Below, piece by piece: positions 1 through 16,227 of a DNA stretch of 20,000 nt. How positions within the stretch are numbered: the stretch's first letter is position 1; each line of letters starts with the position of its first letter. The stretch is from an uncultured virus (IMG/VR IMGVR_UViG_3300022660_000072) (taxonomy: Duplodnaviria > Heunggongvirae > Uroviricota > Caudoviricetes). The stretch is taken from IMG/VR virus record IMGVR_UViG_3300022660_000072; one strand, 5' to 3'. A program made the translations under genes and the position numbers. A model generated the notes under the pieces. The model saw nothing but the letters and a program-made list of their open reading frames with translations, had not been told where the DNA came from and did no database searches.

Positions 1-1
1 G

Positions 2-481
2 AACTCCTTTACCCACCAGGAGGAGAAAAGAGGAATCTATGTGTTTATTTACCCTGTTACGCTGATACCAAAAGATGGATATACCATTGAAAAGGTTGAA
101 GCTTTTTCCGGATTGAAGGTTTGTGTGAGAGAGCTAAAAAGGAATGCCCCAAAGTCCGTTGAATCCATATGGGAAAGACTGCAGGAAAGTATAGATATGC
201 TTGTCACCATGTTCGAAGATGGCAGAGTTGATCTAGTAGATAGCCACTTGAGAGCTACAGAGTGGACACCAATGGAAAAGTTTTATGTAGTATGCTCAGA
301 CAGGATTTGGAAAGACAAGCTTGTCTGTGAATGCAAGACCCTGCTTGAGACGGAGATTGTAGAAAACAAGTGGAATTCTCACTCAGATAAGATGAGAGTA
401 AGGACAGTAACGAAAAAGCCTAGTTATCCTGCTACATGGTACAAGGTTTCAGAAGATGGTTCAGTAGTAAAAACAAGGTAG
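2..481 (+). CDS. Hypothetical phage protein, 5'-truncated by the window edge
   Basis: Frame +2 is open from base 2 (NSFTHQEEKRGIYVFIYP...), so the track's GTG at 41 is probably internal. TAG at 479-481. Confidence 0.75.
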   Translation, partial: NSFTHQEEKRGIYVFIYPVTLIPKDGYTIEKVEAFSGLKVCVRELKRNAPKSVESIWERLQESIDMLVTMFEDGRVDLVDSHLRATEWTPMEKFYVVCSDRIWKDKLVCECKTLLETEIVENKWNSHSDKMRVRTVTKKPSYPATWYKVSEDGSVVKTR

Positions 482-483
482 AT

Positions 484-786
484 ATGGCAATGTACACGAT
501 GCAAGACTGGAGGAGAGACAAGGTTCTCAAGCTCACAGTAGGACAGGAAGTCGATGAACCGGTTGTATGGCAGTTAAGGGATTGTGTTCCTCCTGTCAAC
601 TGCACAAGAAGTTATCTGCAGGTTGGAGAAGCCAAGACCATAGATGAGGAGTTTGTCGATCTGTACGACACGTTCGAAAGAGACAGTGACAACAATGGAC
701 CTTGGGTTTATCTAGGAGCCTGCAGGATAGATGAAAGAAAGCCTAGAGAATGTTATTTTGAGAAGTATTACAAAATGAATAGTTAA
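484..786 (+). CDS. Hypothetical phage protein (100 aa; motif DCVPP...YLQVGE)
   Basis: ATG at 484 follows the upstream stop by 2 nt, a better start than the overlapping 436 start in the track. Confidence 0.8.
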   Translation: MAMYTMQDWRRDKVLKLTVGQEVDEPVVWQLRDCVPPVNCTRSYLQVGEAKTIDEEFVDLYDTFERDSDNNGPWVYLGACRIDERKPRECYFEKYYKMNS

Positions 787-790
787 AGAT

Positions 791-1117
791 ATGTTGACAT
801 TGAACATGCAGAACATGAAAGCCCGCAACATGGAGGAGCTTTCGAAGAATTTGAAGGAAGTGGCAGATTCCATTAAGGAAGGCTACAACACAGGAATAAT
901 GAGACCAGGCTGTATCTGGAAGATTGAAGGAGAAGAAGAGCCTGATGAGGAGGAAAAGGTCTTCTGTTTCAAATTCCGGTCTGAGGTTTTCATCAAGGCT
1001 AAAAGCAAGGATGAGGCAGAGCTTTATTTCGAAGGTCTAGAGCTGCTTAGTCCAGAAGCTATTGAACATGGTGGAGAGGTGTCTCCATATTACGAAGTTG
1101 AAAAATGTAAGGAGTAA
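791..1117 (+). CDS. Hypothetical protein, apparently two small domains joined by an acidic linker; C-terminal part DpnD/PcfM-like
   Basis: Tight packing; linker EGEEEPDEEE; C-terminal EVFIKAKSKDEA resembles the xVEAxxxEEA pattern. Confidence 0.75.
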   Translation: MLTLNMQNMKARNMEELSKNLKEVADSIKEGYNTGIMRPGCIWKIEGEEEPDEEEKVFCFKFRSEVFIKAKSKDEAELYFEGLELLSPEAIEHGGEVSPYYEVEKCKE

Positions 1118-1275
1118 TGGACATGGATCACATTGAAGTACAACAGGAGTATGAAACCCTCAAGGAGCAGCTAGGAGCAGAAGTCTTCCTTGAAGAATTG
1201 TATCAGGCTATGAATACAGATGAAGCCCATGTTTATTTCGAGCATGTTGCAAGAATGAATGACATAGAATTGTAA
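1117..1275 (+). CDS. Small acidic hypothetical protein (52 aa, MDMDHIEVQQEYETLKEQLGAEVFLEELYQAMNTDEAHVYFEHVARMNDIEL); not in ORF track
   Basis: TAATG stop/start overlap at 1115-1119; hand-translated; fills the gap exactly. Confidence 0.8.
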   Translation: MDMDHIEVQQEYETLKEQLGAEVFLEELYQAMNTDEAHVYFEHVARMNDIEL

Positions 1276-1278
1276 ATT

Positions 1279-1440
1279 ATGGCAAAGTTTGTTTTTTACA
1301 CCACCATGACAGAGTATGGAACGATTGAGGTGGAGGCTAAGACCTTGAAAGAGGCAGAGAAGTTAGCCTGGGAGATGGAAGGAAAGTATTGTCCACATCA
1401 GAACATAGTAGAAGATATTGAACAGAAGTTAACATTTTAA
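1279..1440 (+). CDS. Small DpnD/PcfM-like protein (53 aa, MAKFVFYTTMTEYGTIEVEAKTLKEAEKLAWEMEGK...); not in ORF track
   Basis: Hand-translated; 3-nt gaps on both sides; IEVEAKTLKEA motif. Confidence 0.8.
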   Translation: MAKFVFYTTMTEYGTIEVEAKTLKEAEKLAWEMEGKYCPHQNIVEDIEQKLTF

Positions 1441-1443
1441 GTT

Positions 1444-1602
1444 ATGATAAGATTAGTTGACACATGTTTCGGCGTATTCAAGGTAGAGAACGGAACAGCC
1501 ACATCATTGAAAGATGACCAGTTTTACTACAATATCCCCAATGGTATGAGGGATGAAGACATACAGGCTTACTTTGAGCTCCTAATGGAGTATGAAGCCT
1601 AG
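1444..1602 (+). CDS. Small hypothetical protein (52 aa, MIRLVDTCFGVFKVENGTATSLKDDQFYYNIPNGMRDEDIQAYFELLMEYEA); not in ORF track
   Basis: Hand-translated; start context TAAGTTATG matches the recurrent initiation motif. Confidence 0.8.
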   Translation: MIRLVDTCFGVFKVENGTATSLKDDQFYYNIPNGMRDEDIQAYFELLMEYEA

Positions 1603-1641
1603 GTTTTATAGATTTATATTTTTATAGAAAAAAGTAGAGTT

Positions 1642-2037
1642 ATGAAATTGATTTATTTGGTAGATGGAGTTGATAAAGGCATGTTTTCCGGAGAAGAAAA
1701 GGAAGGTATCTTCTTACAGAGGCTTGTCTTTGAATTCCAGTCTGGAAGAAATGATGGATACTTCATATCCAAAGTCCATGAAAAAGAGTACCAAGAATGG
1801 TATAAGAACCTTCCCGAAGAAAACGTATGCTATTGCACCTTCGATAGGTTGTACAATAAGACTATCAAGTATGACAAGCAGAAGACCTTGTTTCTCCTGG
1901 CTTACAGCTTTGAGAACAGCTTCCAAGGAAGTTCGGGTTATGTAAAGTTCAGCAGTAAGAGAATGCAGAGGCTTTACCTGGCATGGGTTGATGAAAGAAA
2001 TCGAAAGATGGAGGTTTTGTACAGGTCCAAAAAGTAA
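1642..2037 (+). CDS. Hypothetical phage protein (131 aa)
   Basis: ORF track; start context AAAGTAGAGTTATG. Confidence 0.8.
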   Translation: MKLIYLVDGVDKGMFSGEEKEGIFLQRLVFEFQSGRNDGYFISKVHEKEYQEWYKNLPEENVCYCTFDRLYNKTIKYDKQKTLFLLAYSFENSFQGSSGYVKFSSKRMQRLYLAWVDERNRKMEVLYRSKK

Positions 2038-2064
2038 TGAAAAGTTCATTTTGAATAAAAATGT

Positions 2065-2131
2065 CATAACTTGCATAAAATCAGCATGTTATGTGTCGGT
2101 AATTCAAAATTCATGCTTACCTTTACATAAG
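2065..2131 (+). promoter_or_regulatory. Putative early promoter (TACCTTTACAT, variant of Bacteroidetes TAnnTTTG) with upstream inverted repeat
   Basis: ATGCTTACCTTTACATAAG at 2113-2131 is 17/19 identical to 4117-4135. IR CATAACTTGC (2065-2074) / GCATGTTATG (2084-2093). Lies in an AT-rich intergenic gap. Confidence 0.65.
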
Positions 2132-2149
2132 AAATCAAAATAGTAAGTT

Positions 2150-2419
2150 ATGATAGAGTCCAATTTGAAGCATGTCGCAGTTTACGACAAATATTTCAAG
2201 AAGGTGCTTTTGGCAGATTACGTGACAGACTACAGAGGTGTATCATATTATACGCTTAAGTACGCTGATATTGTCAGAAGGAATGACGGAAAGAGAGTTC
2301 CTGGTCCTATAAGTTATAGTAAGTCTGAAAACGGCACAGTAATTCCTAGGAGAGTAAAAAGGATACAAGATATTGAAGTTTTGGCGAAGGAGATTGGTCT
2401 TGTGCATTTTGAATTTTAG
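2150..2419 (+). CDS. Hypothetical phage protein (89 aa, basic)
   Basis: ORF track; AGTAAGTTATG start context. Confidence 0.8.
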   Translation: MIESNLKHVAVYDKYFKKVLLADYVTDYRGVSYYTLKYADIVRRNDGKRVPGPISYSKSENGTVIPRRVKRIQDIEVLAKEIGLVHFEF

Positions 2420-2431
2420 ATTGATAAAGAT

Positions 2432-2650
2432 ATGAGCAAGTTGTATTTGTTGGAGTGGTATCTCACTCTTGAAGGTAAGAAGAAAAGAAGATTGTTTTCA
2501 GACAAGGATGTAGCAGATGAGAAGTATCAGGAGTTGAAAGGTTCGATCCGTCACGGATGGCTATCTCTCAAGGAGCTTTTTGAAAGCAACATCGAAGAAG
2601 GTTTTGAAGAAGGAGAAGTTCTCCATTATAACGATATAAACAGACTGTAG
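2432..2650 (+). CDS. Hypothetical phage protein (72 aa)
   Basis: ORF track; tight packing. Confidence 0.75.
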   Translation: MSKLYLLEWYLTLEGKKKRRLFSDKDVADEKYQELKGSIRHGWLSLKELFESNIEEGFEEGEVLHYNDINRL

Positions 2651-2669
2651 AACAGAAGTAGAGAAAGAA

Positions 2670-2936
2670 ATGAAGAAGATTGGAAACATCAGCATGGATC
2701 CTGCTGTGATTGTAGACACCGAGGTGTATGCGCAGGACCTTGACAACGCAAAGAAGATAGCCAAGGTATTCATAGAAGAATCGGCAAGATTTGAGTTTGT
2801 GAGCCAGGGCGAATGTGGAAAGAACTGTTTTCGTATCAAGACGGAGTGTTTCGGCACGGTTGCTGATATGCTTGACATCGCAAAGTATAGAAGATGCAAG
2901 TTCAAGGCAGTTGTCACTCCGGTAATAGCAGTTTAA
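2670..2936 (+). CDS. Hypothetical phage protein (88 aa)
   Basis: ORF track; A-rich leader, tight packing. Confidence 0.75.
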   Translation: MKKIGNISMDPAVIVDTEVYAQDLDNAKKIAKVFIEESARFEFVSQGECGKNCFRIKTECFGTVADMLDIAKYRRCKFKAVVTPVIAV

Positions 2937-2963
2937 GTGTAACGGCTCAAAGAAAAGTAAGTT

Positions 2964-3560
2964 ATGGAAAAGAAGTCGAAGTTGTTTGACGACATGATGT
3001 CAGAGTACAGAAAAAAGGAGACTCACGAACTAGCCGGCATCCTAGGAGTGGAGATGAAGAAGTACCAAACGCTTCCATTGGAGGCAATCATAGGCAATGT
3101 ATCTCCAACCCAACAGCCAGTTGTAAAGGCCGCTATTGGTCTTTATGAAAGATTAAGAGTCTACAATCAACCTGCTCCAATAAGGGGAGTAGAAGATGTT
3201 GTCCCTATACTCAGATCAGTTCTGGCAGGGCGCGAGGAGTACAGAGACGAGGTGTGGTGTATCACTTTAGACAGAATGCATTGTATCAAGAGCATTGATG
3301 CATGCTTCTTCGGAAAGTTCGAATTTTCAAGATTTGCCCCAATGTACATCTGCAAGAATGTGATTGAAAACAAAGGAGAAGCTGCCATATTAGCACAAAG
3401 TTGTAAGGATGAAGACCTGCTTCCAAGTAGGGATGTGATAGATAAGGTCAGAAGTGTGAAGAATGCATTGAGTTCAGTTGGCATTGCTCTTACAGACCAT
3501 GTGATGGTTACGAATGAAGGCGTGTGCTACTCGTTCGCAGAAGAAAAGTGTTTCAAGTAA
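2964..3560 (+). CDS. RadC-like JAB/MPN-domain protein with degenerate metal-binding site
   Basis: RadC-like features: EVWCITLD, AAIL..., LLPSRD, ALSSVGIALTDHVMV...YSFAE. The expected HNHPSG reads AQSCKD. Confidence 0.85.
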   Translation: MEKKSKLFDDMMSEYRKKETHELAGILGVEMKKYQTLPLEAIIGNVSPTQQPVVKAAIGLYERLRVYNQPAPIRGVEDVVPILRSVLAGREEYRDEVWCITLDRMHCIKSIDACFFGKFEFSRFAPMYICKNVIENKGEAAILAQSCKDEDLLPSRDVIDKVRSVKNALSSVGIALTDHVMVTNEGVCYSFAEEKCFK

Positions 3561-3571
3561 GTCAATAAGAT

Positions 3572-3817
3572 ATGGTAGACATTGCAATTTTGGATTACAG
3601 CGTAAGTGAAGTGATACTTCTGAAAGCTGACGAAAAGATTGTTGAACGTGACTTCAACAACGATGTTGCAGCATTTATTCAGGCACCTATAAGTCAAGGA
3701 GGGCTTGGTTTTGATCTTGATAGCTGCTATTACATGTGCAGTGAGAAGATAAGAGTTATCTGTCCGTTCGGAAGCCCAGAAGGTGGAATGGAGATTGGCT
3801 GTGATTCAACTCACTAG
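3572..3817 (+). CDS. Hypothetical phage protein (81 aa)
   Basis: ORF track; preceded by AGTAAGT (3556-3562). Confidence 0.75.
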   Translation: MVDIAILDYSVSEVILLKADEKIVERDFNNDVAAFIQAPISQGGLGFDLDSCYYMCSEKIRVICPFGSPEGGMEIGCDSTH

Positions 3818-3994
3818 TAGTCAGGTGGTTATGACGGCTGTGAAGGTCCCCAGGCTTTCTCAGTTTGCTCATATAAAAAGGGATTCAAGTGCAAGAGTAG
3901 CAATAAGTTGTGTGATGTATGGCACGTGTTTTGTCTTTTGCGATGTTGAGTTCGTTAATCTATATGAAGGCGTTGGTAGAGGAGTTTTCTTGTC

Positions 3995-4030
3995 AGGGTA
4001 GGGACGGATAGTCCCCACCCTTTTTGTTTG
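3995..4030 (+). terminator. Intrinsic terminator
   Basis: GGGTAGGGAC-GGATA-GTCCCCACCC stem (one mismatch) followed by TTTTTGTTTG. Confidence 0.85.
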
Positions 4031-4084
4031 TCATTCAGAACGTAGCTGAGACCAATGTAAAAACTTGTTAAATCATTGAAAAAT

Positions 4085-4135
4085 AATGTTTTACAATGGC
4101 TCGTTGAAAAACATTTATGCGTACCTTTACATTAG
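4085..4135 (+). promoter_or_regulatory. Putative early promoter (TACCTTTACAT) with upstream inverted repeat
   Basis: ATGCGTACCTTTACATTAG at 4117-4135. IR AATGTTTTACAA (4085-4096) / TTGAAAAACATT (4104-4115), 11/12 match. Directly downstream of a terminator. Confidence 0.7.
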
Positions 4136-4145
4136 CTAAAAGAAA

Positions 4146-4156
4146 GTTCTTTGAAA
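4146..4156 (+). promoter_or_regulatory. boxA-like antitermination element GTTCTTTGAAA
   Basis: Resembles the Nus boxA consensus (GYTCTTTRAMA); about 10 nt downstream of the putative promoter. Confidence 0.5.
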
Positions 4157-4162
4157 AGCTGG

Positions 4163-4193
4163 AAAAAAGAAAGCCTCTCCCAAGGGAAGAGGC
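4163..4193 (-). terminator. Intrinsic terminator on the minus strand
   Basis: GCCTCTCC/GGAAGAGGC stem (4173-4193), followed on the minus strand by TTTCTTTTTT (4172-4163). Confidence 0.7.
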
Positions 4194-4249
4194 GAGGTAG
4201 TGGAGGAACGCCTTAAGAATTTGTCCTCCGGAACTTAATCTTCGCTGTT

Positions 4250-4309
4250 ATGAGAATAAGAATCTCTATCAGACTTGGCAGATGGACATTTGTAGTTACT
4301 AACTACTAG
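4250..4309 (+). CDS. 19-aa basic/hydrophobic peptide MRIRISIRLGRWTFVVTNY (candidate type I toxin or leader peptide); not in ORF track
   Basis: Hand-translated; GTTATG start context as in other genes; buried in nested stems. Confidence 0.6.
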   Translation: MRIRISIRLGRWTFVVTNY

Positions 4310-4376
4310 TGCCAAGGGCGAGGGGTCAGTTTCCGGCTCTCCCCTCGCTGAAGATTAAGATTTCATTCTCCAGCCC

Positions 4377-4386
4377 TGCAAAGATA
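4377..4386 (-). promoter_or_regulatory. Bacteroidetes -7 promoter element TATCTTTGCA, firing leftward
   Basis: Plus strand TGCAAAGATA gives TAnnTTTG on the minus strand; intergenic; no clear -33 TTTG. Confidence 0.65.
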
Positions 4387-4403
4387 GTAAAAAAGTAAGT
4401 TGT

Positions 4404-4583
4404 ATGAAGAAAGTTAGAAGAATCCCACGTGAAAGAATCCCTGCGTTTATTGCATATGCCCTTGTTGCCGTTTGTGTGATTGGTGGCTTCACAGCAGGAA
4501 AGCACTGTTTGTTTACCGGAGGAGCGATGTACATCATTGGAATGATTCTCGATCCGAAGTCAGACCTTTATAGAAAGGACTAA
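4404..4583 (+). CDS. Small membrane protein (59 aa, MKKVRRIPRERIPAFIAYALVAVCVIGGFTAGKHCLFTGGAMYIIGMILDPKSDLYRKD); not in ORF track
   Basis: Hand-translated; AGTAAGT at 4394-4400; basic N-terminus and two hydrophobic segments; stop 3 nt before the next ATG. Confidence 0.8.
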   Translation: MKKVRRIPRERIPAFIAYALVAVCVIGGFTAGKHCLFTGGAMYIIGMILDPKSDLYRKD

Positions 4584-4586
4584 GCC

Positions 4587-4871
4587 ATGAATGAGAAGCT
4601 GTTGAGTAAGATTCTTACCCCAAGAATCAACAGGTGGAAGATGTTGAATGAAAAGGGCAGGAGAATCGAAGCCAAGATAGAGATAGCAAGGTACTTCGCC
4701 CTTAACATAGATGGCAAGCCTTTCGAAGAAGTCTATAAGGAGCTACAAGGTGCTCAAAAGCAAGGTGCATACATTATCTCCACCGAACTGTTCCTAGACA
4801 ATATTATGCTTTCTAAGTTGAGCTATGAATGGGGAGACGAAGTTTACCACATGATGAAAGAATGTATTTAG
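4587..4871 (+). CDS. Hypothetical phage protein (94 aa)
   Basis: ORF track; tight packing. Confidence 0.75.
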   Translation: MNEKLLSKILTPRINRWKMLNEKGRRIEAKIEIARYFALNIDGKPFEEVYKELQGAQKQGAYIISTELFLDNIMLSKLSYEWGDEVYHMMKECI

Positions 4872-4895
4872 TATAAACCCAAAACAAAGTAAGTT

Positions 4896-5216
4896 ATGAA
4901 GAAGTTGACATTTGAACAGGTGTACAAAAGGTTCGTTAAGCACAACGAGGAGAAAAAGGTGACAAGCCAGTATTCTGCCTCAAAGTCTAACAGACTAGTA
5001 GGAGTTGTTGTTTTCAAGGAAGATAACTGGCCAGGCAAAGATTACAGCCTAGAGTCAAGGTCCTATCAGTTCGTTAGTGACAACAAGTATTTCATCCCAG
5101 GTCTTGGTGGTAATTCGATTTTCGCTGATTGCATGGATGGTTCAGAGGAAGGAATAAGGCTTGACTTTTACCTCAGTTCTTGGGAGATTGACTACTGTTA
5201 CATAGAAGGAGAGTAA
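4896..5216 (+). CDS. Conserved-looking hypothetical mobile-element protein (YSLESRSY...SDNK...GGNSIF..C.DG)
   Basis: ORF track; AGTAAGTTATG start context. Confidence 0.85.
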   Translation: MKKLTFEQVYKRFVKHNEEKKVTSQYSASKSNRLVGVVVFKEDNWPGKDYSLESRSYQFVSDNKYFIPGLGGNSIFADCMDGSEEGIRLDFYLSSWEIDYCYIEGE

Positions 5217-5219
5217 GGC

Positions 5220-5378
5220 ATGGATAGAGTAAACACGAATCAGCGATTGGTCTCAAGAGAGAGGGCAATCGAAATAACCATGAATGTGAATGGAGTCACA
5301 CGTGGAATGGCAGAAAGGTACACAGACAGTGAGCTGAAAGAAGTATTGAGATTGGTAAGGATGAAGCCGGCATTTTAG
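5220..5378 (+). CDS. Small hypothetical protein (52 aa, MDRVNTNQRLVSRERAIEITMNVNGVTRGMAERYTDSELKEVLRLVRMKPAF); not in ORF track
   Basis: Hand-translated; fills the 5217-5380 gap with 3-nt and 2-nt spacers. Confidence 0.8.
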   Translation: MDRVNTNQRLVSRERAIEITMNVNGVTRGMAERYTDSELKEVLRLVRMKPAF

Positions 5379-5380
5379 TT

Positions 5381-5755
5381 ATGGGAAACAGAGTATATGA
5401 TATGGCGATGGAACTCCTCCAGGAGGAGGCATACGCAATGCATGAGTCATACAACAACGAACAGATAGCAGAGTGTGTTCAGAAGATTGTAGGCAGGTTG
5501 AACAGGCATGGTCACAAGTATTCGCAGACTATCACTGCAGACCTGGGATTGCTCCAGATCAAGGTCAAGAATGCAAGTTCAAGGAACGGAGGCTCGTTCG
5601 TTTCTGTGTCTGATGAGACTGCTACCTATGTGGCGAGGTCACTATCGGAAATCATAGATGTGAGTGTTGTTTGCACCGAAGATGAGGTCAAGGGTCTCAT
5701 AGAAATGATGGATGAAGCTTTCTTTGCATTGAAAGACAGAGACCGGAGTTTTTAG
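5381..5755 (+). CDS. Hypothetical phage protein (124 aa)
   Basis: ORF track; AGTTATG start context. Confidence 0.8.
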   Translation: MGNRVYDMAMELLQEEAYAMHESYNNEQIAECVQKIVGRLNRHGHKYSQTITADLGLLQIKVKNASSRNGGSFVSVSDETATYVARSLSEIIDVSVVCTEDEVKGLIEMMDEAFFALKDRDRSF

Positions 5756-5764
5756 GCAAAGTTA
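5755..5764 (-). promoter_or_regulatory. Bacteroidetes -7 element TAACTTTGCC, firing leftward and divergent from the structural promoter
   Basis: Plus strand GGCAAAGTTA gives TAnnTTTG on the minus strand, at the left edge of the intergenic region. Confidence 0.55.
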
Positions 5765-5832
5765 CCCCATGAAAGTGGCTGTTTTAGCCTAAATAGGTCA
5801 GTAAAAACAAGTTGAGCAATAAAATCTTTTAG

Positions 5833-5861
5833 AAAGTGTTGCATTTTGCAACACTTTTTTT
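5833..5861. promoter_or_regulatory. Perfect 11-bp inverted repeat (operator and/or terminator)
   Basis: AAAGTGTTGCA-TTT-TGCAACACTTT (5833-5857) running into a T tract; overlaps the -33 region of the structural promoter. Confidence 0.75.
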
Positions 5862-5862
5862 A

Positions 5863-5870
5863 TACCTTTG
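5863..5870 (+). promoter_or_regulatory. Bacteroidetes -7 element TACCTTTG for the structural operon
   Basis: Matches TAnnTTTG, with TTG at 5839-5841 (21-nt spacer); about 110 nt upstream of the scaffold ATG. Confidence 0.75.
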
Positions 5871-5902
5871 TCGCAAGCTATTCCAGAAAAGTAGGCTACT
5901 AC

Positions 5903-5977
5903 CTTTCATAACTTACTGGCTAGGGGTCTGCTGTTCTCAAGATAGCAGACCCTATAATAAAAAAAGTAAGTTAAAAG
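5903..5977 (+). promoter_or_regulatory. Structured 5' leader of the structural operon, sequestering the scaffold initiation region
   Basis: Inner stem GGGTCTGCT (5924-5932) / AGCAGACCC (5944-5952). Outer pairing TAACTTACT (5909-5917) / AGTAAGTTA (5965-5973) plus CTTT (5903-5906) / AAAG (5974-5977). Confidence 0.65.
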
Positions 5978-5979
5978 AA

Positions 5980-6663
5980 ATGAAGAACAAGGTATTTACC
6001 AGACTGGAGCCGAAGGCTAAGTCCTACGGATTCAGTAAAGATGAGCTGATGACTGTGTGCGAGTCTATAGCAAATGGTTTCAGTTCCGAAGAGGAAGCCA
6101 CAGATGAAGCAATCGATGCTAGAATCGAAGCTTCTCTGCCATTCTTGAAAATCTCTCAGAGTGCCGCCAATCGGTCTTACGAACGAATGAAGGCGAAATT
6201 CGAAGATGAGAACAAGCCAAAACCAACACCAACACCGCAGCCTGAGCCACCGAAGCCAGCTGACCCACCTGTAGATGAAGCCCCTGCATGGTTCAAAGCT
6301 TTCCAGGAGAAGTACGAATCAGACAAGAAGGCTACCAATGACAGGTTCAATCAGATGAGCCAGGAGAAAGCCAATGAAGGCTTTATGGCTAGTGCTCTCT
6401 CAAGTCTTAAGGATGTCGATCCAAGATTCTACAGAGACCTTAAGGGAAAGACCTTCGAGAAGCAGGAAGATGTCGACACCTATGTCTCAGAAGTAATGAA
6501 TGACTGGACAGAGTTCTGTACAGACAAGAACATCAAGGCTATGGCAGATGTTATCCCTCCAGGAGGTGGTCCAAAGCCAACAAAGCCAAACGAAGGTGTT
6601 GTAGCAAGGGCAGAAGCAAGAAAGGCAGTTGAAACCAAGTCTGCAATAAAGGGTCTAGAGTAA
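5980..6663 (+). CDS. Putative capsid scaffolding protein (227 aa)
   Basis: Likely start ATG 5980 (MKNKVFTRLEPKAKSYGFS); helical and charged with a Pro-rich linker (KPKPTPTPQPEPPKP) and PAWFK motif; position before decoration and capsid genes. Confidence 0.75.
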   Translation: MKNKVFTRLEPKAKSYGFSKDELMTVCESIANGFSSEEEATDEAIDARIEASLPFLKISQSAANRSYERMKAKFEDENKPKPTPTPQPEPPKPADPPVDEAPAWFKAFQEKYESDKKATNDRFNQMSQEKANEGFMASALSSLKDVDPRFYRDLKGKTFEKQEDVDTYVSEVMNDWTEFCTDKNIKAMADVIPPGGGPKPTKPNEGVVARAEARKAVETKSAIKGLE

Positions 6664-6707
6664 TTCTGGAGTAAGGCCCGTAATCAATCAAATAAAAGTA
6701 AGTCCAA

Positions 6708-7271
6708 ATGGAAGTAAAATTCGCTCACACAGAAGCTCCTGCTCCGAAGCCAATCGTCTTCGAGCAGATTTTTGCTGAGAAGCCAGGCGGTGGACTGCTT
6801 GCCAACCACGACTTCGATGTGAAGGAGGGTATGGCTGCCGGTCTTAACGCAGCTGGAAAGTATCAGGTCATCAAGGCACCGATGCTCTATGAGGACGCTA
6901 CAGCAGAAGCCACAACCATCAAGGTTAAGAAGGGTTCAGCAGTAGTATCCGGTGATTTCCTTGCCACAGGCAAGAAGGCCGTAAAGGTCACTAAGGTGGT
7001 TACAACTGATCCAAACTATGATGTGCTTACAATTTCACTCGGAGTTGAAGTAAAGGCCGGACAGGTGCTCTATCAGGCAACCGCAGCAGCCGATGGTTCA
7101 ACAGCAACAGCAGCTCTCTCTGTTGTTCCAGTTTATCTGGTCGGTGATGATGTCCCTGCAAACTCAGGTGACTTCATGGTTAAGCTCGTCAACGGAGCAA
7201 ACATTCGCAAGGAGACAGCACCTGTCGCTGACGAGGTGGTGGCTCAGATGAAAGGAATCTCAAAAGTGTAG
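6708..7271 (+). CDS. Putative head decoration/head fibre protein
   Basis: 187 aa, Ala/Val/Gly/Thr-rich, between scaffold and major capsid. Confidence 0.65.
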   Translation: MEVKFAHTEAPAPKPIVFEQIFAEKPGGGLLANHDFDVKEGMAAGLNAAGKYQVIKAPMLYEDATAEATTIKVKKGSAVVSGDFLATGKKAVKVTKVVTTDPNYDVLTISLGVEVKAGQVLYQATAAADGSTATAALSVVPVYLVGDDVPANSGDFMVKLVNGANIRKETAPVADEVVAQMKGISKV

Positions 7272-7277
7272 TGTAGT

Positions 7278-8402
7278 ATGGGTACAATGAACAAACCACT
7301 GATGGACATCGACCAGCCTAGTCTTCAGGCTGAGGTCGATTCGTATGTTCCAGGTAACGGATTTGCCTGGAGAGACCTTTTCCCACTCCGATACACCCCT
7401 AAGTTTGACCTTAAGGGAATCGAAGGTAAGGAGGGTATTCCTATCTCTGCCGACAGAGTTGCATTCAACACTAAGGCACCTCTCAAGAGCAGAAAGACAA
7501 TCGGCTCATGGAGTGGTACTCTTGAGAAGATTGCAATCTCTAGGGAGAAAGACGAAATCGAAATCAATGAGTACAACGACCTTAAGCGTATCGCTGCTGC
7601 AGCTGATACAGACAAGGCTGCAAAGCAGTATCTCGTTGACATGATTTACGATGACGTAGAGTTCTGTAACAATGGTATGGATGCAAGAGTTGAGCTTGAT
7701 GCCATGCGTATCGCTTCTCACGGAGTAAAGACCTACACTAAGGAGGTTGACGGTGAGAACGCAACAGAGGACATCATCAACTTCAACGTACCGAAGGAGA
7801 ATTTCCACGGAACAGCAGTGAAGTGGTCTGACCCTACAGCCGATGGTCTCGGTGACATCATGAAGATGGTAAGAGCTCTCAAGAAGGCTGGCAAGAAGGC
7901 TCCTGCTTACGCATTCATGGAGCAGCAGGCTTTCGACTACCTCTGCGCACAGGAGAAGACTGCAAAGAGACTGTTCACAGCAGCAGCTCTCAAGAACGAC
8001 ATGATCTTCACAGCAGAGCGTGTTACCCTTGAGAACATCAACAACTACCTCTCAAGCAAGGGCATGCCTAGAATCGCTATCCTTGACACTTGGGTTACTA
8101 TCCAGGCGAAGGACGGAAGCGAGACTACAGTTAAGCCTTGGGCTGAGAACGTTGTTGTACTCTCTCTTACTGCACAGCTCGGTTGGACATGGTACAAGAC
8201 TGTTCCGCAGGTTCCTAACACAGAAGCCCTCCAGGCTTACGGTGGATTCTATAAGACCACAAGGTACTCAGAGGTTAACCCTATGCTTGAGGTGACAATG
8301 GCAGAGGCATACGTGCAGCCTGCCCTTATCAATCGCTCAAGCTTGATGTTCCTCAATACTGAGAACTCTGAGTGGGCTAACGGAGAAGTAGCAAAAGCCT
8401 AA
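7278..8402 (+). CDS. Major capsid protein (lambda gpE-like family)
   Basis: 374 aa; WRDLFPLRYT, ADRVAFNTKAPLKSR and C-terminal EVTMAEAYVQPAL motifs; biased, high-expression codon usage; synteny. Confidence 0.9.
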   Translation: MGTMNKPLMDIDQPSLQAEVDSYVPGNGFAWRDLFPLRYTPKFDLKGIEGKEGIPISADRVAFNTKAPLKSRKTIGSWSGTLEKIAISREKDEIEINEYNDLKRIAAAADTDKAAKQYLVDMIYDDVEFCNNGMDARVELDAMRIASHGVKTYTKEVDGENATEDIINFNVPKENFHGTAVKWSDPTADGLGDIMKMVRALKKAGKKAPAYAFMEQQAFDYLCAQEKTAKRLFTAAALKNDMIFTAERVTLENINNYLSSKGMPRIAILDTWVTIQAKDGSETTVKPWAENVVVLSLTAQLGWTWYKTVPQVPNTEALQAYGGFYKTTRYSEVNPMLEVTMAEAYVQPALINRSSLMFLNTENSEWANGEVAKA

Positions 8403-11260: not shown

Positions 11261-14200
11261 ATGGCAGGTTTGGAGTTTCATATCACAGCAGACAATAGAG
11301 ACTTTCTCAACAAGGTTCGTCAGGTGCAGGATAAGGTTTCTGAGACCACGAAGAAAGTAGAGAAAGAAGGCAATGAAATGGAGGCTATCTTCAAGAAGCT
11401 TGGAAGTGGGATAGCTTCACTTGGAGCAGGATTCACTGCTACCAAGCTGATTTCTGATATAGTAAGAGTAAGAGGCGAATACCAGCAGCTAGGTATTGCA
11501 ATGGAGACAATGCTTGGAAGCCAGGAGAAGGCTGATGCTCTTATGGCACAGTTGACAGCAACCGCAGCAAAGACTCCATTCGGTCTTTCTGATATAGCAC
11601 ATGGAGCAAAACAGCTCCTTGCTTATGGTACAGCATCGGAGGAAGTAAACGAAACCCTTGTAAGGCTTGGAAACATCGCTTCCGGACTGTCGATTCCGTT
11701 GAATGACCTTGTGTACCTTTATGGCACAACTATGACACAGGGTCGTCTGTTTACGCAGGATTTGAGGCAGTTCATGGGTCGTGGTATTCCATTGGCTGAT
11801 GAGCTTGCAAAGCAGTTCGGTGTCACCAAGGATAAAATTGGTGAGCTTGTTACAGAAGGTAAGGTTGGCTTCCCTGAAGTTGAGAAGGCTATCCACGCAA
11901 TGACCAACGAAGGAGGTAAGTTCTACAACCTCATGGAGAAGCAGTCAAGCTCTCTCACCGGTCAGATAAGCAACCTTGAGGATGCCTGGGACATGATGCT
12001 GAATGAGATTGGTACCAAGACGCAAGGTCTTGCATCTGGTGCAATTCAGACAGCTTCCACCCTCATAGATAACTACGAAAAGGTAGGTCGCATCATAGTT
12101 GAGATAGCAGGTGTTTATGGAACCTATAGAGCAGCGCTTGTAGCAACTACAGCTGTTCAGAAGGTTCACACTATGGTAATGGAGAGAGCTGCTGTTGAGA
12201 TTGGTATTGTAGCAGCACAGCATCATAACCTCACCATACAGCAGGCTAAAGCTGCAGCAGCTACAAAGCTTCTCACTGAAGCAAAGAAGAAGCTTCTCAC
12301 TACCATGAAGGGTCTTGGCAAAGCCTTGACCAATCCTTATGTACTTGCAGCAGCAGCTGTAACTGCACTAGGTTTCGGTATCTACAAGCTCATTACATAT
12401 CAGACTGAGGCAGAGAAGGCACAGAAACGATTGAACGATGCTTTCTCTGAGGCATCTGCTTCTGCCGGTTCGGAGATCAAGAAGCTTGATGAACTCAAAG
12501 GCAGATTGTCTGCTGCCAAGAAAGGTTCTGCAGAATACTACGAAATCAAGGATGAGATTGTCAAGAACTTCGGTAAGTACGATTCAACTCTTGCTGATGA
12601 GATAGAGAGAGTTGGAGACCTTTCTACAAAGTACGATGTCCTTGCAAAGGCTATACAGGATTCAGCTAACGCAAGGATGTACGACAAGTATGTAGAGGAG
12701 GAGACCGAGAGATATGACAAGGATGTCACTGGTAAGCTCAAGAAGCTCCAGGAGACTATCTACGGAGCCAAAGGCATAAGCACAGAAGATGCAGCTCGCA
12801 CGTATTCGAAGATATGGAAGAACATCTTCCAGGGCGAAGCTCTTGACCAGGAGACTGAGAATGTCATCAAGAGTTTCGACAAGGTGCTCAAGGGAACTGA
12901 TAACACTGGCAAGAAGTTCACAGCCATTCAGAATCCTATCCGTGACTACATAGCTGACCTCAATGACCTGAATGTTCAGCAGGATGAGTTCATCAACAAT
13001 GCTAGAACCATGTTTGGTTTTGGTGCTGATACATCCGACTTCAATAAAGGTCTGAAGACTCTGACTGAGGAGCAGTTGAATCAGACAAAGAAGGATCTTG
13101 CCGAAATCCTCAGTAAGTTCAAGGAGACAAAGCAGGAGCAGGATTATTCGCTTGTTTCCGGAGAGGACATCACATTCGCTACAGAGCAGCAGATTACTGA
13201 TGCCATAGCCAACGTGGACTCATTCCTTGCTCAGATTAAGGCTAACAGAGACAAGAATAAGCCAAAGGAAGAAGAATATGAGGAAAATGCCATCAAGAAG
13301 GCACAGCAGACAGCAGAGAAGGTCGCTGAGGCTTCAAGAAAGGCAGAGTATGACCTTAAGAAGGCTCAGACAGACGATGAAATAAAGCTCATAGAACTTG
13401 AGAGAGACGAGAAGATTGATGCTCTCAATGATGAGCTTGAGGCATACAAGGCTATCTACGAAGCAGCCGGTAAGGATACCAAGGAGCTTGAGGAAAGTTT
13501 CGCAAGAATGGTAGAGGTTGAAAAGCAGATGGCTGATATCGAAATCAACGAAGCCAACAAGGAAAAGAGTGATAAGATCAAGGAAGAACTGCAGGACCTT
13601 CTGAAAGAGTTTGAGACCTATCAGCAGGCTGTCACTCGTATAGAGAAGGAATACGATGAGAAGCGTAAGAAGATGTACGAGGAAGACGGAAAGACTTTCA
13701 AGGCTGGATTCGACGATGATAATGTCAGAGAACTTGAACGCCAGAAGAAGGAAGCCATTGAGGAGGTAGCTGAGAACTACGCAGATAAGAGTGATGCTTT
13801 CGAATCATGGGCTGACTCGTTATCTTCTATAGCTATTACAGAGCTGAATAAGATGTTGGCTCTTGCAAAGGCTAGACTTTCTATTCTAAAGAATACAGAA
13901 GGTGTTGACGAACTTGAGATAGCACAGGCAGAGGCTGCAATCGAATCGCTTGAAACAGCCATATCTAATTCGAACGACACCACTAAGGAAAGCAAGGCAA
14001 ACTGGACTGAACTGTCAAAAGTAATTAACGATGCAGGTTCAGTGTTCGGAGAACTAGGAGATGTCATCCCAGGAGTAGCCGGAGAAGTTCTTGCTGGAGT
14101 AGGCGGAATTGCCAGTGCGGCTGTTGGTATGGCAAATGGCATCAAGACTATTGGAGAGGCTGCTTCTGCTGCAGAAAAGGCTTCTGCAGTGCTTGCTGTA

Positions 14201-16224: not shown

Positions 16225-16227
16225 AGA

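Follow-up and report, generated by a model that had tools for sequence, protein, structure and literature searches.

A short leader ahead of the head genes of an uncultured Caudoviricetes virus raises the question of whether it acts on the operon to which it belongs or on the messages of other genes. The window, i.e., the whole stretch of 20,000 nucleotides that was analyzed, reads CTTTCATAACTTACT at 5903-5917, and the exact reverse complement of this segment, AGTAAGTTATGAAAG, confirms that it is antisense to a motif shared by the start regions of other genes. The preliminary description had built on this a candidate early/late switch, in which the late leader would silence early mRNAs in trans, or early mRNAs would invade the leader and unmask scaffold translation.

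The motif itself is far more frequent than expected by chance. In the window, AGTAAGTTATGAAAG matches the + strand at 2142 (one mismatch), 2956 (two) and 4888 (two). Allowing up to three mismatches there are 5 matches against 0.89 expected, and for the core GTAAGTTATG with at most one mismatch there are 7 against 1.07 expected; 0/200 shuffles reached the observed count in either case. The weaker sites ahead of the ATGs at 1642, 1444 and 4404 are also as first described, with duplexes of -13.5, -12.0 and -12.7 kcal/mol respectively. Over the complete genome of 62,328 bases, the coding strand holds 28 copies of AGTAAGTT and 20 of GTAAGTTATG, and the opposite strand one of each (for GTAAGTTATG at 5907), so that the motif belongs to non-structural genes throughout the genome rather than being a feature of the genes just upstream of the leader, as had been assumed. 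When all start regions are compared with the anti-motif, 32 of 118 form a duplex at -14 kcal/mol or better, while shuffled anti-motifs (n = 100) reach this level at 2.7 start regions on average and at 11 at most. The complementarity is thus beyond chance, and it is unevenly spread: duplexes of this strength are found at 14/60 starts in the replication/recombination region, 3/11 in the block from ParB to the minor head gene, 15/32 in the small-ORF cluster and 0/15 in the head-tail region. The exact junction GTAAGTT+ATG is present at 20/92 non-morphogenesis starts and 0/26 morphogenesis starts.

This very regular AGTAAGTT-ATG junction, which recurs at approximately 30 gene starts (the motif can also be written AGUAAGUU) and is excluded from morphogenesis genes, deserves attention in its own right. 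We know of no initiation signal of these hosts that accounts for it, and its regularity may be a more interesting lead than the leader itself.

Features of the leader region, in window coordinates
Feature	Position	Strand	Basis
Terminator-like palindrome AAAGTGTTGCA-TTT-TGCAACACTTT	5833-5857, T-run to 5861	+	Read from sequence
Bacteroidota-type -7 box TACCTTTG, consensus TAnnTTTG	5863-5870	+	Regex match
P1, small 5' hairpin (5886-5889 with 5904-5907; 5891-5894 with 5899-5902)	5886-5907	+	Minimum-free-energy fold
Anti-start-region strand (anti-motif) CUUUCAUAACUUACU, 5' strand of long-range helix P2	5903-5917	+	Sequence and fold
P3, strong 13-bp hairpin inside P2	5923-5953	+	Minimum-free-energy fold
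A/U-rich single-stranded linker, P3 to start-region motif	5954-5964	+	Fold prediction
Start-region motif AGUAAGUUA (5965-5973), then AAAG; 3' strand of P2	5965-5977	+	Sequence and fold
First gene of head module, 227 aa, putative scaffolding protein	5980-6663	+	Position and all-helical prediction

The leader begins behind a terminator-promoter junction. The palindrome and its T-run close the upstream small-ORF cluster and overlap the expected -33 region of the promoter; they are absent from the list produced by a consensus terminator scan. Palindrome and -7 box form a cassette with three copies in the genome, and a long leader is found in only one of them, the one at the head gene. Most relatives carry a hairpin of different sequence with a T-run at the equivalent place ahead of the -7 box, and the differences between the window and its relative L007 in the palindrome are confined to the loop and the loop-closing pair. 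The consensus of the Bacteroidota primary sigma factor is given as TAnnTTTG at -7 and TTTG at -33 (PMC7366714), where the expected -33 place of the present promoter reads GTTG. No sigma-70-like promoter was found in 5500-6200. Judged only from the consensus -7 box, transcription of the head operon would start at approximately 5875-5877.

Folding 5875-5990 gives a minimum free energy of -35.1 kcal/mol (z = -4.47), and 0/200 shuffles fold as well. In this structure P2 consists of nine base pairs, 5909-5917 with 5965-5973, around the 13-bp hairpin, with pair probabilities of 0.80-0.997 in three transcript models. We therefore also predict (pair probabilities 0.8-0.99) what the preliminary description had proposed, a cis fold that spans the inner hairpin and reaches the initiation region of the first head gene. 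The own duplex between the 5' strand and the start region of the first head gene amounts to -11.5 kcal/mol; the bases 5909-5917 are paired with a probability of 0.88-1.00, and opening 5903-5917 costs 7.3-8.6 kcal/mol. P1 overlaps the 5' end of the anti-motif, with a paired probability of 0.7-0.98 at 5904-5907, and a 5'-terminal stem is likewise predicted in the relatives. The 3' end of the linker is predicted to be unpaired (paired probability 0.00-0.01 at 5962-5964). An Rfam 15 scan of 5600-6200 returned 5 weak matches, the best at 23.5 bits against a cut-off of 50.

How strongly this structure would affect initiation is a separate matter. At the first head gene a spacer of 6-7 nt separates the start-region motif from the AUG, whereas the canonical copies elsewhere have none, and prediction leaves the AUG at 5980-5982 mostly unpaired: opening it costs 0.2-0.5 kcal/mol. 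Opening the region from -18 to +6 costs 3.9-7.3 kcal/mol, a moderate sequestration; calculated with 110 nt of upstream context, the gene ranks 32/118 in the genome, where the median is 5.6, and is no outlier. Because sequestration is moderate and the AUG almost free, a strong translational block is not predicted in this phage. The corresponding cost is 5.1-10.3 kcal/mol in 11 of the 12 other long leaders computed (L149 was left out) and 1.6 kcal/mol in L130. Specifically for the AUG, UUUCAU at 5904-5909 can pair with the operon's own AUGAAG at 5980-5985 across a 6-nt bulge, though the probability of the pair 5907:5982 is 0.04-0.31 and varies with transcript length.

The gene behind this leader starts at 5980 and not, as initially annotated, at 5981. 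Its product falls into PHROG 5824, of unknown function, and has no Pfam family above its cut-off. An AlphaFold model (pLDDT 71.7) consists of 8 helices and a disordered linker, for which a structure search returned one significant match, to an uncharacterised protein, and named scaffolding proteins at E 0.6-0.8 only. Since neither the Pfam nor the structure search supplied a name, the scaffold label follows from position: the gene for the major head protein lies downstream at 7278-8402. The genes upstream of the leader, presumed early in the preliminary description, sit between the portal/minor-head genes and the head module. The gene immediately upstream, 5381-5755, had no PHROG, Pfam or Atlas match.

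A comparison with relatives separates what is peculiar to this phage from what is common to the family. Direct searches returned little: blastn of 5300-7300 against phage GenBank records, an IMG/VR scan with a single protein and a first scan of bacterial genomes found no match or relative, a pattern search for leaders of the L001 type recovered only L001's own contig, and the anti-motif 15-mer matched 106 stretches, with blastn finding the remainder of the leader at none of the loci compared. Genes homologous to the 227-aa one, at 28-94% identity, were obtained from IMG/VR, JGI metagenomes and Bacteroidota MAGs, and contigs from four public runs were included. A set of 25 closer homologues, with 66-97% identity, lies in ENA and Logan assemblies. 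Of 24 leaders folded, 14 distinct ones from about six subfamilies have the same order of parts (the window, L007, L001, L004, L006, L002, L124, L116, L121, L123, L126, L130, L132 and L149), so the cis architecture recurs ahead of homologous genes. The order is a -7 box, a 5' strand, a GC hairpin of unrelated sequence, an A/T-rich linker, which all relatives have, and the start region. The TAnnTTTG box is at the equivalent place in most relatives, looser in L116 and L127 and absent from L130.

In the relatives the start motif abuts the gene's own ATG, and the best duplex between 5' strand and start region covers the own AUG in 12 of the 14 leaders; those of L007 and L132 end at -2 and -3. The whole AUG is paired in seven, opposite CAU (4), CGU (2) or UAU (1), wobble-tolerant variants that are intelligible only in RNA of the + strand. 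The retained CAT, which the preliminary description had considered necessary for trans pairing only, is thereby explained: it, or a variant of it, opposes the own AUG in half of the leaders, and in this phage too it can pair in cis. Pairing in the relatives extends further, into gene-specific codons; GUCUC(A/G)U, for instance, pairs with AUGGAGAC, and GUUUUCCAU with AUGAAAAC. G-U pairs are part of 10 of the 14 best duplexes.

Statistically, a 5' strand fits its own start region better than those of other subfamilies. Own duplexes average -12.5 kcal/mol against -8.4 kcal/mol for cross pairings among 11 non-redundant leaders (permutation p = 0.00015), and with one representative per subfamily (n = 6) only 2, 2 and 4 of 720 permutations equal the own pairing. 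The z-scores of individual duplexes against shuffles are modest, from -0.07 to -3.15. For P3, 8 of 12 predicted pairs are retained through two-sided changes in an alignment of six leaders; as the MAFFT alignment misaligned the start-region strand, covariation in P2 could not be counted on it and the count was confined to P3. Fold, conservation and covariation are thus computed results.

Closer relatives show where change is tolerated. A 23.8-kb DNA contig of run X14 has 25 differences from the window in 5500-6300 and none in 5833-6011. The leader of L007 is identical to that of the window except for loop changes and indels adjoining the start region, and 5903-5917 is identical in both L007 and the X14 contig. 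Natural variants of P3 alter the loop only (L007 at 5937-5938, run X13 at 5938), while the linker is an indel hot spot (5958-5962 in L007 and in the X13 and X16 contigs), and where natural variants carry insertions after 5970 and 5972 the 8-bp core still pairs. On these sequences the leader is under purifying selection. The starts of RNA-library contigs at 5907 and 5928 were considered as transcript ends and rejected: a DNA contig also begins at 5908, and these starts are therefore assembly breaks.

Within subfamily I the two strands behave differently. The core ACTTACT of the 5' strand is unchanged in the seven leaders compared (the window, L007, L001, L005, L004, L006 and L002) and does not covary with the start-region strand, which has a different defect in each lineage: a spacer, a C insertion, G>A or U>C against a constant ACUUACU. 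Moreover, in the window genome and in two other genomes, G001 and G002, canonical starts elsewhere suit the 5' strand better than the start region of its own gene, which ranks 17/99 in G001 and 19/53 in G002. In six further genomes it ranks 6/24, 8/41, 37/67, 2/19, 10/25 and 6/41 by duplex energy, and since it is not top-ranked in any of these six (ranks 2-37), duplex energy alone is a noisy measure. G001 and G002 have a common start motif of their own, which their 5' strand fits with a G-U pair or a bulge. Most genomes with the leader architecture are without the AGTAAGT start motif: AGTAAGT-N(0-9)-ATG has no match in seven related virus records and a single match in one, and all eight of these motif-poor records keep the design of 5' strand, hairpin and start region, L119 and L122 in the form of the shorter closing helix.

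Taken together, we consider it reasonably probable that 5833-5985 comprises a terminator-promoter junction and, behind it, the conserved, structured and cis-acting 5' leader of the head operon, which tunes translation of the first gene. Transcription would start at approximately 5875, just after the Bacteroidota -7 box, and the leader RNA would form P1, P3 and the long-range P2, in which 5903-5917 pairs with the start-region motif at 5965-5973 of the operon's own first gene. P2 would then occupy the ribosome-loading region of that gene and so tune its translation; the stability of the mRNA 5' end may be affected as well. Shine-Dalgarno pairing plays no part in hosts of this phylum, where start-region structure is among the main factors that decide initiation. 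The match of the leader to some 30 other start regions follows because its own start region is a slightly altered copy of the common AGTAAGTT-ATG junction. Since the self-pairing design is common to related phages, the match of the anti-motif to the starts of other genes most likely arises as a by-product rather than marking an early/late switch. We infer the transcription start, the effect on translation and the lack of a trans role. Two observations fit less well. A constant 5' strand facing a varying start-region strand, with a better fit elsewhere in the genome, is an asymmetry that a purely cis model does not predict. A scaffold-like protein is also expected in large amounts, with which repression sits oddly.

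A different function in cis, mainly control of the transcript and not of translation, seems rather unlikely. Here P3 would be an attenuator, a terminator, a processing site or a 5' stabiliser, with a phage factor governing read-through or cleavage, and P2 would be structural scaffolding. P3 is the most stable and best-covarying part of the leader, P1 takes in the extreme 5' end of the presumed transcript, the start region is no more than moderately sequestered here, and a promoter followed by a terminator ahead of the late genes is the classical lambdoid arrangement. A run of at least four U also follows P3 directly in 5 of the 14 leaders. However, the other nine, the window included, have no U-tract: the tail behind P3 in this phage, UAUAAUAAAA, has 3 U among its first 8 bases, and the terminator scan made no call at P3, where the GC-rich hairpin is not followed by the U-tract that marks an intrinsic terminator or attenuator. 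No antiterminator-like protein was recognised either, the upstream gene 5381-5755 having no PHROG, Pfam or Atlas match, and a terminator or stabiliser would have no need of complementarity to the own AUG and first codons, which is significant across subfamilies.

For the trans switch from which the analysis started we see little chance. The leader, or a short RNA ending after P3, would pair through CUUUCAUAACUUACU with the shared AGUAAGUUAUG starts of non-structural genes and silence them late in infection; alternatively, their mRNAs would titrate the strand and thereby open the head gene. The excess of strong duplexes over every shuffled control and the confinement of the exact junction to non-morphogenesis starts are in line with this, as is the single antisense copy in 62 kb. 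So are the preference of the 5' strands of the window genome, G001 and G002 for canonical starts over their own, and the invariance of the 5'-strand core while the own start region varies. The U-runs behind P3 in five leaders could moreover release a short RNA with a free seed. In this phage, though, there is no U-tract behind P3, and the seed is predicted to be locked in cis; by our arithmetic, once both partners have been opened, pairing in trans nets no more than a few kcal/mol. The feature conserved throughout the family is pairing to the own start, gene-specific codons included, which persists in the eight motif-poor records, and complementarity to other starts is automatic, given that the start region of the operon itself copies the common motif. 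The strand of G001 is one base out of register with the common motif of that genome, and one leader would have to serve about 30 kinds of target. Silencing of early mRNAs by the late leader is therefore not supported: the anti-motif is predicted to be cis-locked, and the genes that carry the motif are only presumed to be early. Because the cis design explains the CAT, locks the anti-motif and persists without the motif, a trans switch is an extra hypothesis that is not needed.

The two functions could also be combined in a riboregulator with a dual purpose, to which we give a slim chance. The 5' strand, normally held on the start region of the head gene, would be freed by ribosomes, by a phage factor or in a short RNA that ends behind P3, at which the U-tracts of some relatives hint. 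It would then mask the AGUAAGUUAUG junction of some 30 non-structural genes and so shut off the other messages of the phage globally as head-protein synthesis begins, a fate that head and tail genes would escape by avoiding the exact junction.

It is very unlikely that the inverted repeat acts as a DNA operator downstream of the promoter, or that it is a chance or relic inversion without function. TAACTTACT and AGTAAGTTA do form a perfect 9-bp inverted repeat in the DNA too, and one antisense 10-mer in 62 kb is not wildly improbable (we estimate ~0.1). But the G-U pairs of the best duplexes become A-C mismatches on the other strand or in a cruciform, both strands vary in sequence among subfamilies while their complementarity is retained, and the leader is under purifying selection. 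Finally, a small minus-strand gene using the AGTAAGTT-ATG at 5917-5907 is hardly credible: this perfect canonical junction opens a 26-codon frame (MKGSSLLFWNSLRQRYKKSVAKCNTF), but its ATG is not conserved (CGT in L001, L005 and L002; TAT in L130 and L149) and the frame crosses the promoter box and the terminator palindrome. Candidate gene calls are confined to the window's + strand and take up 86.5% of the genome, so that a minus-strand peptide start, which the preliminary description had named as a possible refutation of its own proposal, can be rejected.

The preferred reading, a leader acting in cis, has partial counterparts in known systems. The RNA phage MS2 is described as having a leader in which an upstream strand reaches past enclosed hairpins to pair with the site where ribosomes load on the first gene, and in which a 5' hairpin can transiently hold that strand (PMC4615214), much as P1 overlaps 5904-5907 here. 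In MS2 the kinetics with which the RNA genome folds during replication set the time available for translation, and the target is a Shine-Dalgarno sequence. The present element, which is known from predictions, would instead belong to the mRNA of a DNA phage in an SD-independent host, with one enclosed hairpin and a largely free AUG. A second likeness is to the T4 genes e, soc, 49 and I-TevI, for which an intramolecular helix over the RBS or AUG of a late-function gene is described as timing its translation (PMC3014915). In T4, late transcripts lack the 5' strand because their promoters are located within or beyond it. This defining feature of the gene e type is missing here: the one promoter box that is conserved (5863-5870) precedes the 5' strand, and the operon's own transcript should therefore carry both strands.

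The trans idea has precedents of another kind. The RegA repressor of T4 acts on early mRNAs as a class, recognising a motif that their start regions have in common. Similarly, the T4 endoribonuclease RegB is described as inactivating early mRNAs via a short motif common to their initiation regions (PMC3014915). In both cases the effector is a protein, and the literature searched describes no RNA that achieves such a shut-off by antisense pairing from a late leader. With phage P22 the likeness lies in a head-assembly scaffold gene being singled out for translational control; here too a structured leader is found on the scaffold-like first head gene only. We know of no RNA operator of this form in the autoregulation of P22 scaffolding protein, and PHROG, Pfam and structure searches detected no relation between the 227-aa protein and P22 gp8.

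A trans switch, if true, would be the more important result, being an RNA counterpart of T4 RegB or RegA, though it is not what the evidence favors. If the cis reading is true, this compact element of approximately 110 nt would represent an unannotated family of structured RNAs without an Rfam match, preceding the first head gene in widespread gut and environmental Bacteroidota phages, and a natural case of control by start-region structure in a phylum whose initiation is SD-independent.

The RNA from 5875 to 5990 is predicted to fold at -35.1 kcal/mol, compared with a mean of -19.9 (sd 3.4) for shuffled versions, of which none in 200 is as stable (z = -4.47). As the preliminary description had proposed, the leader is predicted to pair around an inner hairpin onto the start region of the first head gene (ATG at 5980): a small 5' hairpin (P1) is followed by a long-range helix (P2) enclosing a second hairpin (P3). 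Pair probabilities in P2 are 0.80-0.997 across three transcript models. The AUG at 5980-5982 is almost entirely accessible, with a predicted opening cost of 0.2-0.5 kcal/mol; freeing the 5' strand at 5903-5917, which we call the anti-motif, would cost 7.3-8.6 kcal/mol. No Rfam family reaches its threshold for the leader (best score 23.5 bits versus 50). Taken by itself, the match to the Bacteroides -7 consensus, given as TAnnTTTG in the pertinent text of PMC7366714, would place the transcription start near 5875; RNA-library contigs yielded no usable transcript ends, since a DNA contig is broken at that point too.

The key result of the analysis comes from the leaders of distant relatives. A protein search with the 227-aa first head gene found 32 homologues, and an alignment-driven scan retrieved relatives' DNA at 28-94% identity. 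We folded 24 leaders, an initial 22 and then the loci L130 and L149. The full architecture is present in 14 distinct leaders (the window, L007, L001, L004, L006, L002, L124, L116, L121, L123, L126, L130, L132 and L149; L005 is an identical copy of L001), always in the order -7 box, 5' strand, GC-rich hairpin, A/T-rich linker and start region, except that no -7 box was found in L130 and the match in L116 is looser. The hairpins of these 14 leaders are unrelated in sequence; in an alignment of six leaders, P3 keeps 8 of 12 pairs despite changes on both sides. Six short leaders (L118, L119, L122, L125, L128, L129) instead form a helix between UAACAC or UGACAC and GUGUUA in codons 4-6, and L127, L136 and L138 folded into no clear structure.

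When the 30 bases before the hairpin are paired with the stretch from the hairpin to +12, the best duplex covers the gene's own AUG in 12 of the 14, ending at -2 in L007 and at -3 in L132. The whole AUG is paired in seven, opposite CAU (L004, L006, L124, L116), CGU (L001, L002) or UAU (L149), and part of it in five, the window among them. Pairing continues into codons 2-3 in L001, L004 and L006 (GUCUC(A/G)U with AUG(G/A)AGAC) and into AUGAAAAC in L121, L123 and L126. Duplexes between a 5' strand and its own start region average -12.5 kcal/mol, compared with -8.4 for cross pairs (permutation p = 0.00015; 11 non-redundant leaders, with L007, L005 and L123 omitted as near-duplicates). Because relatives share both strands by descent, the test was also run on six leaders, one per subfamily, and 2, 2 and 4 of 720 permutations were as good. 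These leaders also bear on the CAT in the anti-motif, which was said to be retained for pairing in trans: where the motif adjoins the ATG in relatives, the CAT position pairs with the gene's own AUG, and the claim does not hold. The window lineage has a 6-7-base spacer (AAAAGAA) between motif and ATG; UUUCAU (5904-5909) could still pair with AUGAAG (5980-5985) across a bulge, at a low probability for 5907:5982 (0.04-0.31).

Close variants show where the leader changes. In L007, whose product is 94% identical to the first head protein over the 32 residues compared, the leader is that of the window bar changes in the palindrome loop and its closing pair, two in the P3 loop, and some indels as well as substitutions in the stretch from P3 to the ATG. 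A 23.8-kb DNA contig from the public run X14 has 25 differences from the window within 5500-6300, 18 of them at 5536-5832, seven at 6012-6204 and none in 5833-6011; by our own arithmetic the chance of finding 0 of 25 in 179 of 801 bases is about 0.002. Variants in runs X13 and X16 differ in the P3 loop (5938), in the linker (5957-5962) and by T, TT or A added after 5970 or 5972, and all keep the 8-bp P2 core. Among natural variants, 5958-5972 is an indel hot spot in an otherwise invariant leader: TC and TT are inserted in L007, AA, CC, T and TT in RNA-library contigs of X16, and the DNA run X13 has a 1-base deletion and an A insertion. Such indels may serve to adjust the cis helix in spacing or strength.

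The window corresponds to bases 122-20121 on the minus strand of a 62,328-base IMG/VR virus record with 42% G+C and a CheckV completeness of 100%. A simple caller (at least 45 codons, first ATG only, window's plus strand only) gave 118 ORFs covering 86.5% of the genome on that strand. The genes that the preliminary description called early come after the portal and minor-head genes and before the head module. Within 1-5755 there are about 25 small ORFs of unknown function, the RadC-like one being the sole one recognised, and the junction motif discussed below is present at half of the start regions in the small-ORF cluster.

Layout of the genome and leader features in window coordinates (genome layout from PHROG matches)
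Feature	Position	Remarks
Replication and recombination genes	about -38,400 to -15,400	SbcC-like, RecT, replication initiator, methyltransferase, dUTPase, SSB; PHROG
ParB-like protein, small and large terminase, portal, minor head protein	-15,352 to -5,070	one block; PHROG
About 32 small ORFs, function unknown	-4,999 to 5,755	includes RadC-like protein at 2964-3560
Head-tail module	from 5,980 on	major head protein 7278-8402; tape-measure-sized ORF 11261-15409
Palindrome with T-run	5833-5861	upstream of -7 box
TACCTTTG	5863-5870	matches Bacteroides -7 consensus
P1, small hairpin	5886-5907	predicted fold
P2, nine pairs	5909-5917 with 5965-5973	predicted fold; encloses P3
P3, 13-bp hairpin	5923-5953	predicted fold
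Palindrome and -7 box cassette copies	5833-5870; -15375; -8259	the latter two in the region of L140:15376 and L140:8260, minus
Regular junction: A-rich run, AGTAAGTT, ATG	2142, 2956, 4394, 4888, 5965, 6697, 9961	26 more places in the genome

Three copies of the cassette AAAGTGTTG(C/T)A-nnn-TG(C/A)AACA(C/G)TTT, each with a TAnnTTTG box after it, are present in the genome, before a 213-aa gene, the portal gene and the head module. At the equivalent place relatives have a hairpin and T-run, some with the same GTTGCA...TGCAAC core and others with a different sequence. The cassette resembles a compact terminator-promoter unit in which the 5' arm provides the -33 region; it could instead be the site of a regulator and mark three co-regulated operons. 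The minor head protein (573 aa, SPP1 gp7 / MuF-like; L140:5071-6792, minus, outside the window) also matches ADP-ribosyltransferase families, and two genes downstream lies an ADP-ribosylglycohydrolase gene (255 aa; L140:3946-4713, minus); the two may be an injected modifier with its antidote. The gaps left by the gene caller at 16225-16825, 17345-18097 and 18290-19801 fall where the ORF list has a single open frame, 16228-19998 (1257 aa, 3' end open), probably encoding a tail fibre or host-recognition protein.

The anti-motif reads CTTTCATAACTTACT. Its reverse complement has five matches in the window at up to three mismatches, against 0.89 expected (at least five in 0 of 200 shuffles), and the core GTAAGTTATG has seven at up to one mismatch against 1.07. 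Genome-wide, the coding strand holds 20 copies of GTAAGTTATG and 28 of AGTAAGTT, and the other strand one copy of each, that of GTAAGTTATG being at 5907. AGTAAGT has 39 coding-strand copies, 33 of them followed 7-24 bases on, mostly at exactly 8, by a start codon (counted for frames of at least 35 codons). These counts make AGTAAGTT-ATG a genome-wide gene-junction motif and confirm that the leader holds its sole antisense copy. Many other genes use GGAGG instead. The junction fits no initiation signal known to us for Bacteroidota and may serve re-initiation between tightly packed small genes. As far as a limited literature search goes (11-mer and term matches), the leader and the AGTAAGTTATG junction are apparently undescribed; papers returned for the 11-mer were non-phage by title, and those matched by terms contain no description.

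In trans, the anti-motif was proposed to act as an early/late switch by pairing with the shared start junctions of other genes, which we regard as quite unlikely. Duplexes of -14 kcal/mol or better form with 32 of the 118 start regions (14 of 60 left-arm, 3 of 11 ParB-to-minor-head, 15 of 32 small-ORF and 0 of 15 head-tail genes), while 100 shuffled anti-motifs average 2.7 such start regions and never exceed 11; the own duplex has -11.5. The exact GTAAGTT+ATG form is found at 20 of 92 non-morphogenesis starts versus 0 of 26 morphogenesis starts (chance about 0.008 by our own estimate), and a U-run of at least four after P3 in 5 of 14 relatives could release a short RNA with the anti-motif free as a seed. 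However, such complementarity is automatic because the own start region copies the common junction, P3 has no U-tract in the window phage, and the switch is not borne out since the seed is predicted to be locked in cis and the pairing conserved across the family is with the own gene.

The 5' strand was compared with genome-wide motifs as well as with its own gene. G002, the record of L002, has the window's common motif (exact GTAAGTTATG eight times) and G001, that of L001, the variant ACGAAAGTAAGTTTATG; in these two the 5' strand matches the genome's own common motif by way of a G-U pair or a bulge. As in the window genome, their 5' strand shows greater complementarity to the canonical starts of other genes than to the start region of its own gene, which comes 17th of 99 in G001 and 19th of 53 in G002. 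AGTAAGT-N(0-9)-ATG has no match in seven related records (G003-G007, G009, G010) and one in G008, but the leaders of G003-G010 still have the cis design or closing helix. The start-region strand is blemished differently in each lineage: the window and L007 carry a spacer, L002 has gained a C, L001 and L004 show G>A, and L006 combines U>C with a spacer. The 5' strand keeps its ACUUACU core throughout. A model of cis pairing only would have to read these one-strand blemishes as tuning of helix strength. With about four events (roughly 1 in 16, own arithmetic), the asymmetry favours trans pairing and is its best supporting point, suggestive at best. G002 also has a second antisense AACTTACTTCG at reverse-complement coordinate 34026, about 110 bases upstream of the L002 start, followed by a hairpin TTGCAGG...CCTGCAA at a gene end, upstream of another TAnnTTTG box; it is either a relic or a second anti-motif.

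Two other explanations fail: a DNA-level operator conflicts with G-U pairs in 10 of the 14 duplexes, and the 26-codon frame of a minus-strand peptide from 5909 has CGT or TAT for its ATG in relatives and crosses the promoter and palindrome.

The product of 5980-6663 belongs to PHROG 5824, of unknown function, and its predicted structure is all-helical, with one linker disordered (pLDDT 71.7). No Pfam family scored above cut-off and a structural search gave no significant named match, so the label "scaffolding protein" is positional only. Nearest in form to the head leader is that of the levivirus maturation gene, whose ribosome-binding site pairs with a complementary stretch lying upstream, with hairpins enclosed between the two (PMC4615214). 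The T4 genes e, soc, 49 and I-TevI follow the same pairing principle, with late promoters that bypass the 5' strand, a feature not seen here; the protein precedent for the proposed switch is RegB of T4, which cuts a motif common to early start regions (both from PMC3014915). In P22 the scaffolding protein is implicated in the autoregulation of translation (bioRxiv 10.1101/2022.12.13.520362). The host is likely a member of Bacteroidota: three MAGs, labelled Mucinivorans sp., Tenuifilaceae bacterium and uncultured Bacteroidetes, carry homologues of the first head gene, and near-identical DNA is present in runs labelled faeces, gut, bovine gut and wildlife metagenomes. The phage GenBank set contained no close relative.

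Opening -18 to +6 of the first head gene is predicted to cost 3.9-7.3 kcal/mol, varying with transcript length. With 110 nt of upstream context its start region ranks 32 of 118 for structure (genome median 5.6), in a comparison that overstates structure for genes within translated operons. The cost is 5.1-10.3 kcal/mol in the other long-leader relatives apart from L130 (1.6; L149 left out), and 2.7-4.5 in the short-leader subfamily. The leader may also affect mRNA stability or processing. In a member of the Bacteroidetes, initiation is reported to be tuned by mRNA structure, and the ribosome to do without the Shine-Dalgarno sequence (PMC6847099 and PMC7797042). The cis half of the original interpretation is supported, and is widened to a conserved leader family. 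Since the predicted cis effect is moderate in strength, we take the element to tune or gate initiation on the first head gene rather than to switch it off.
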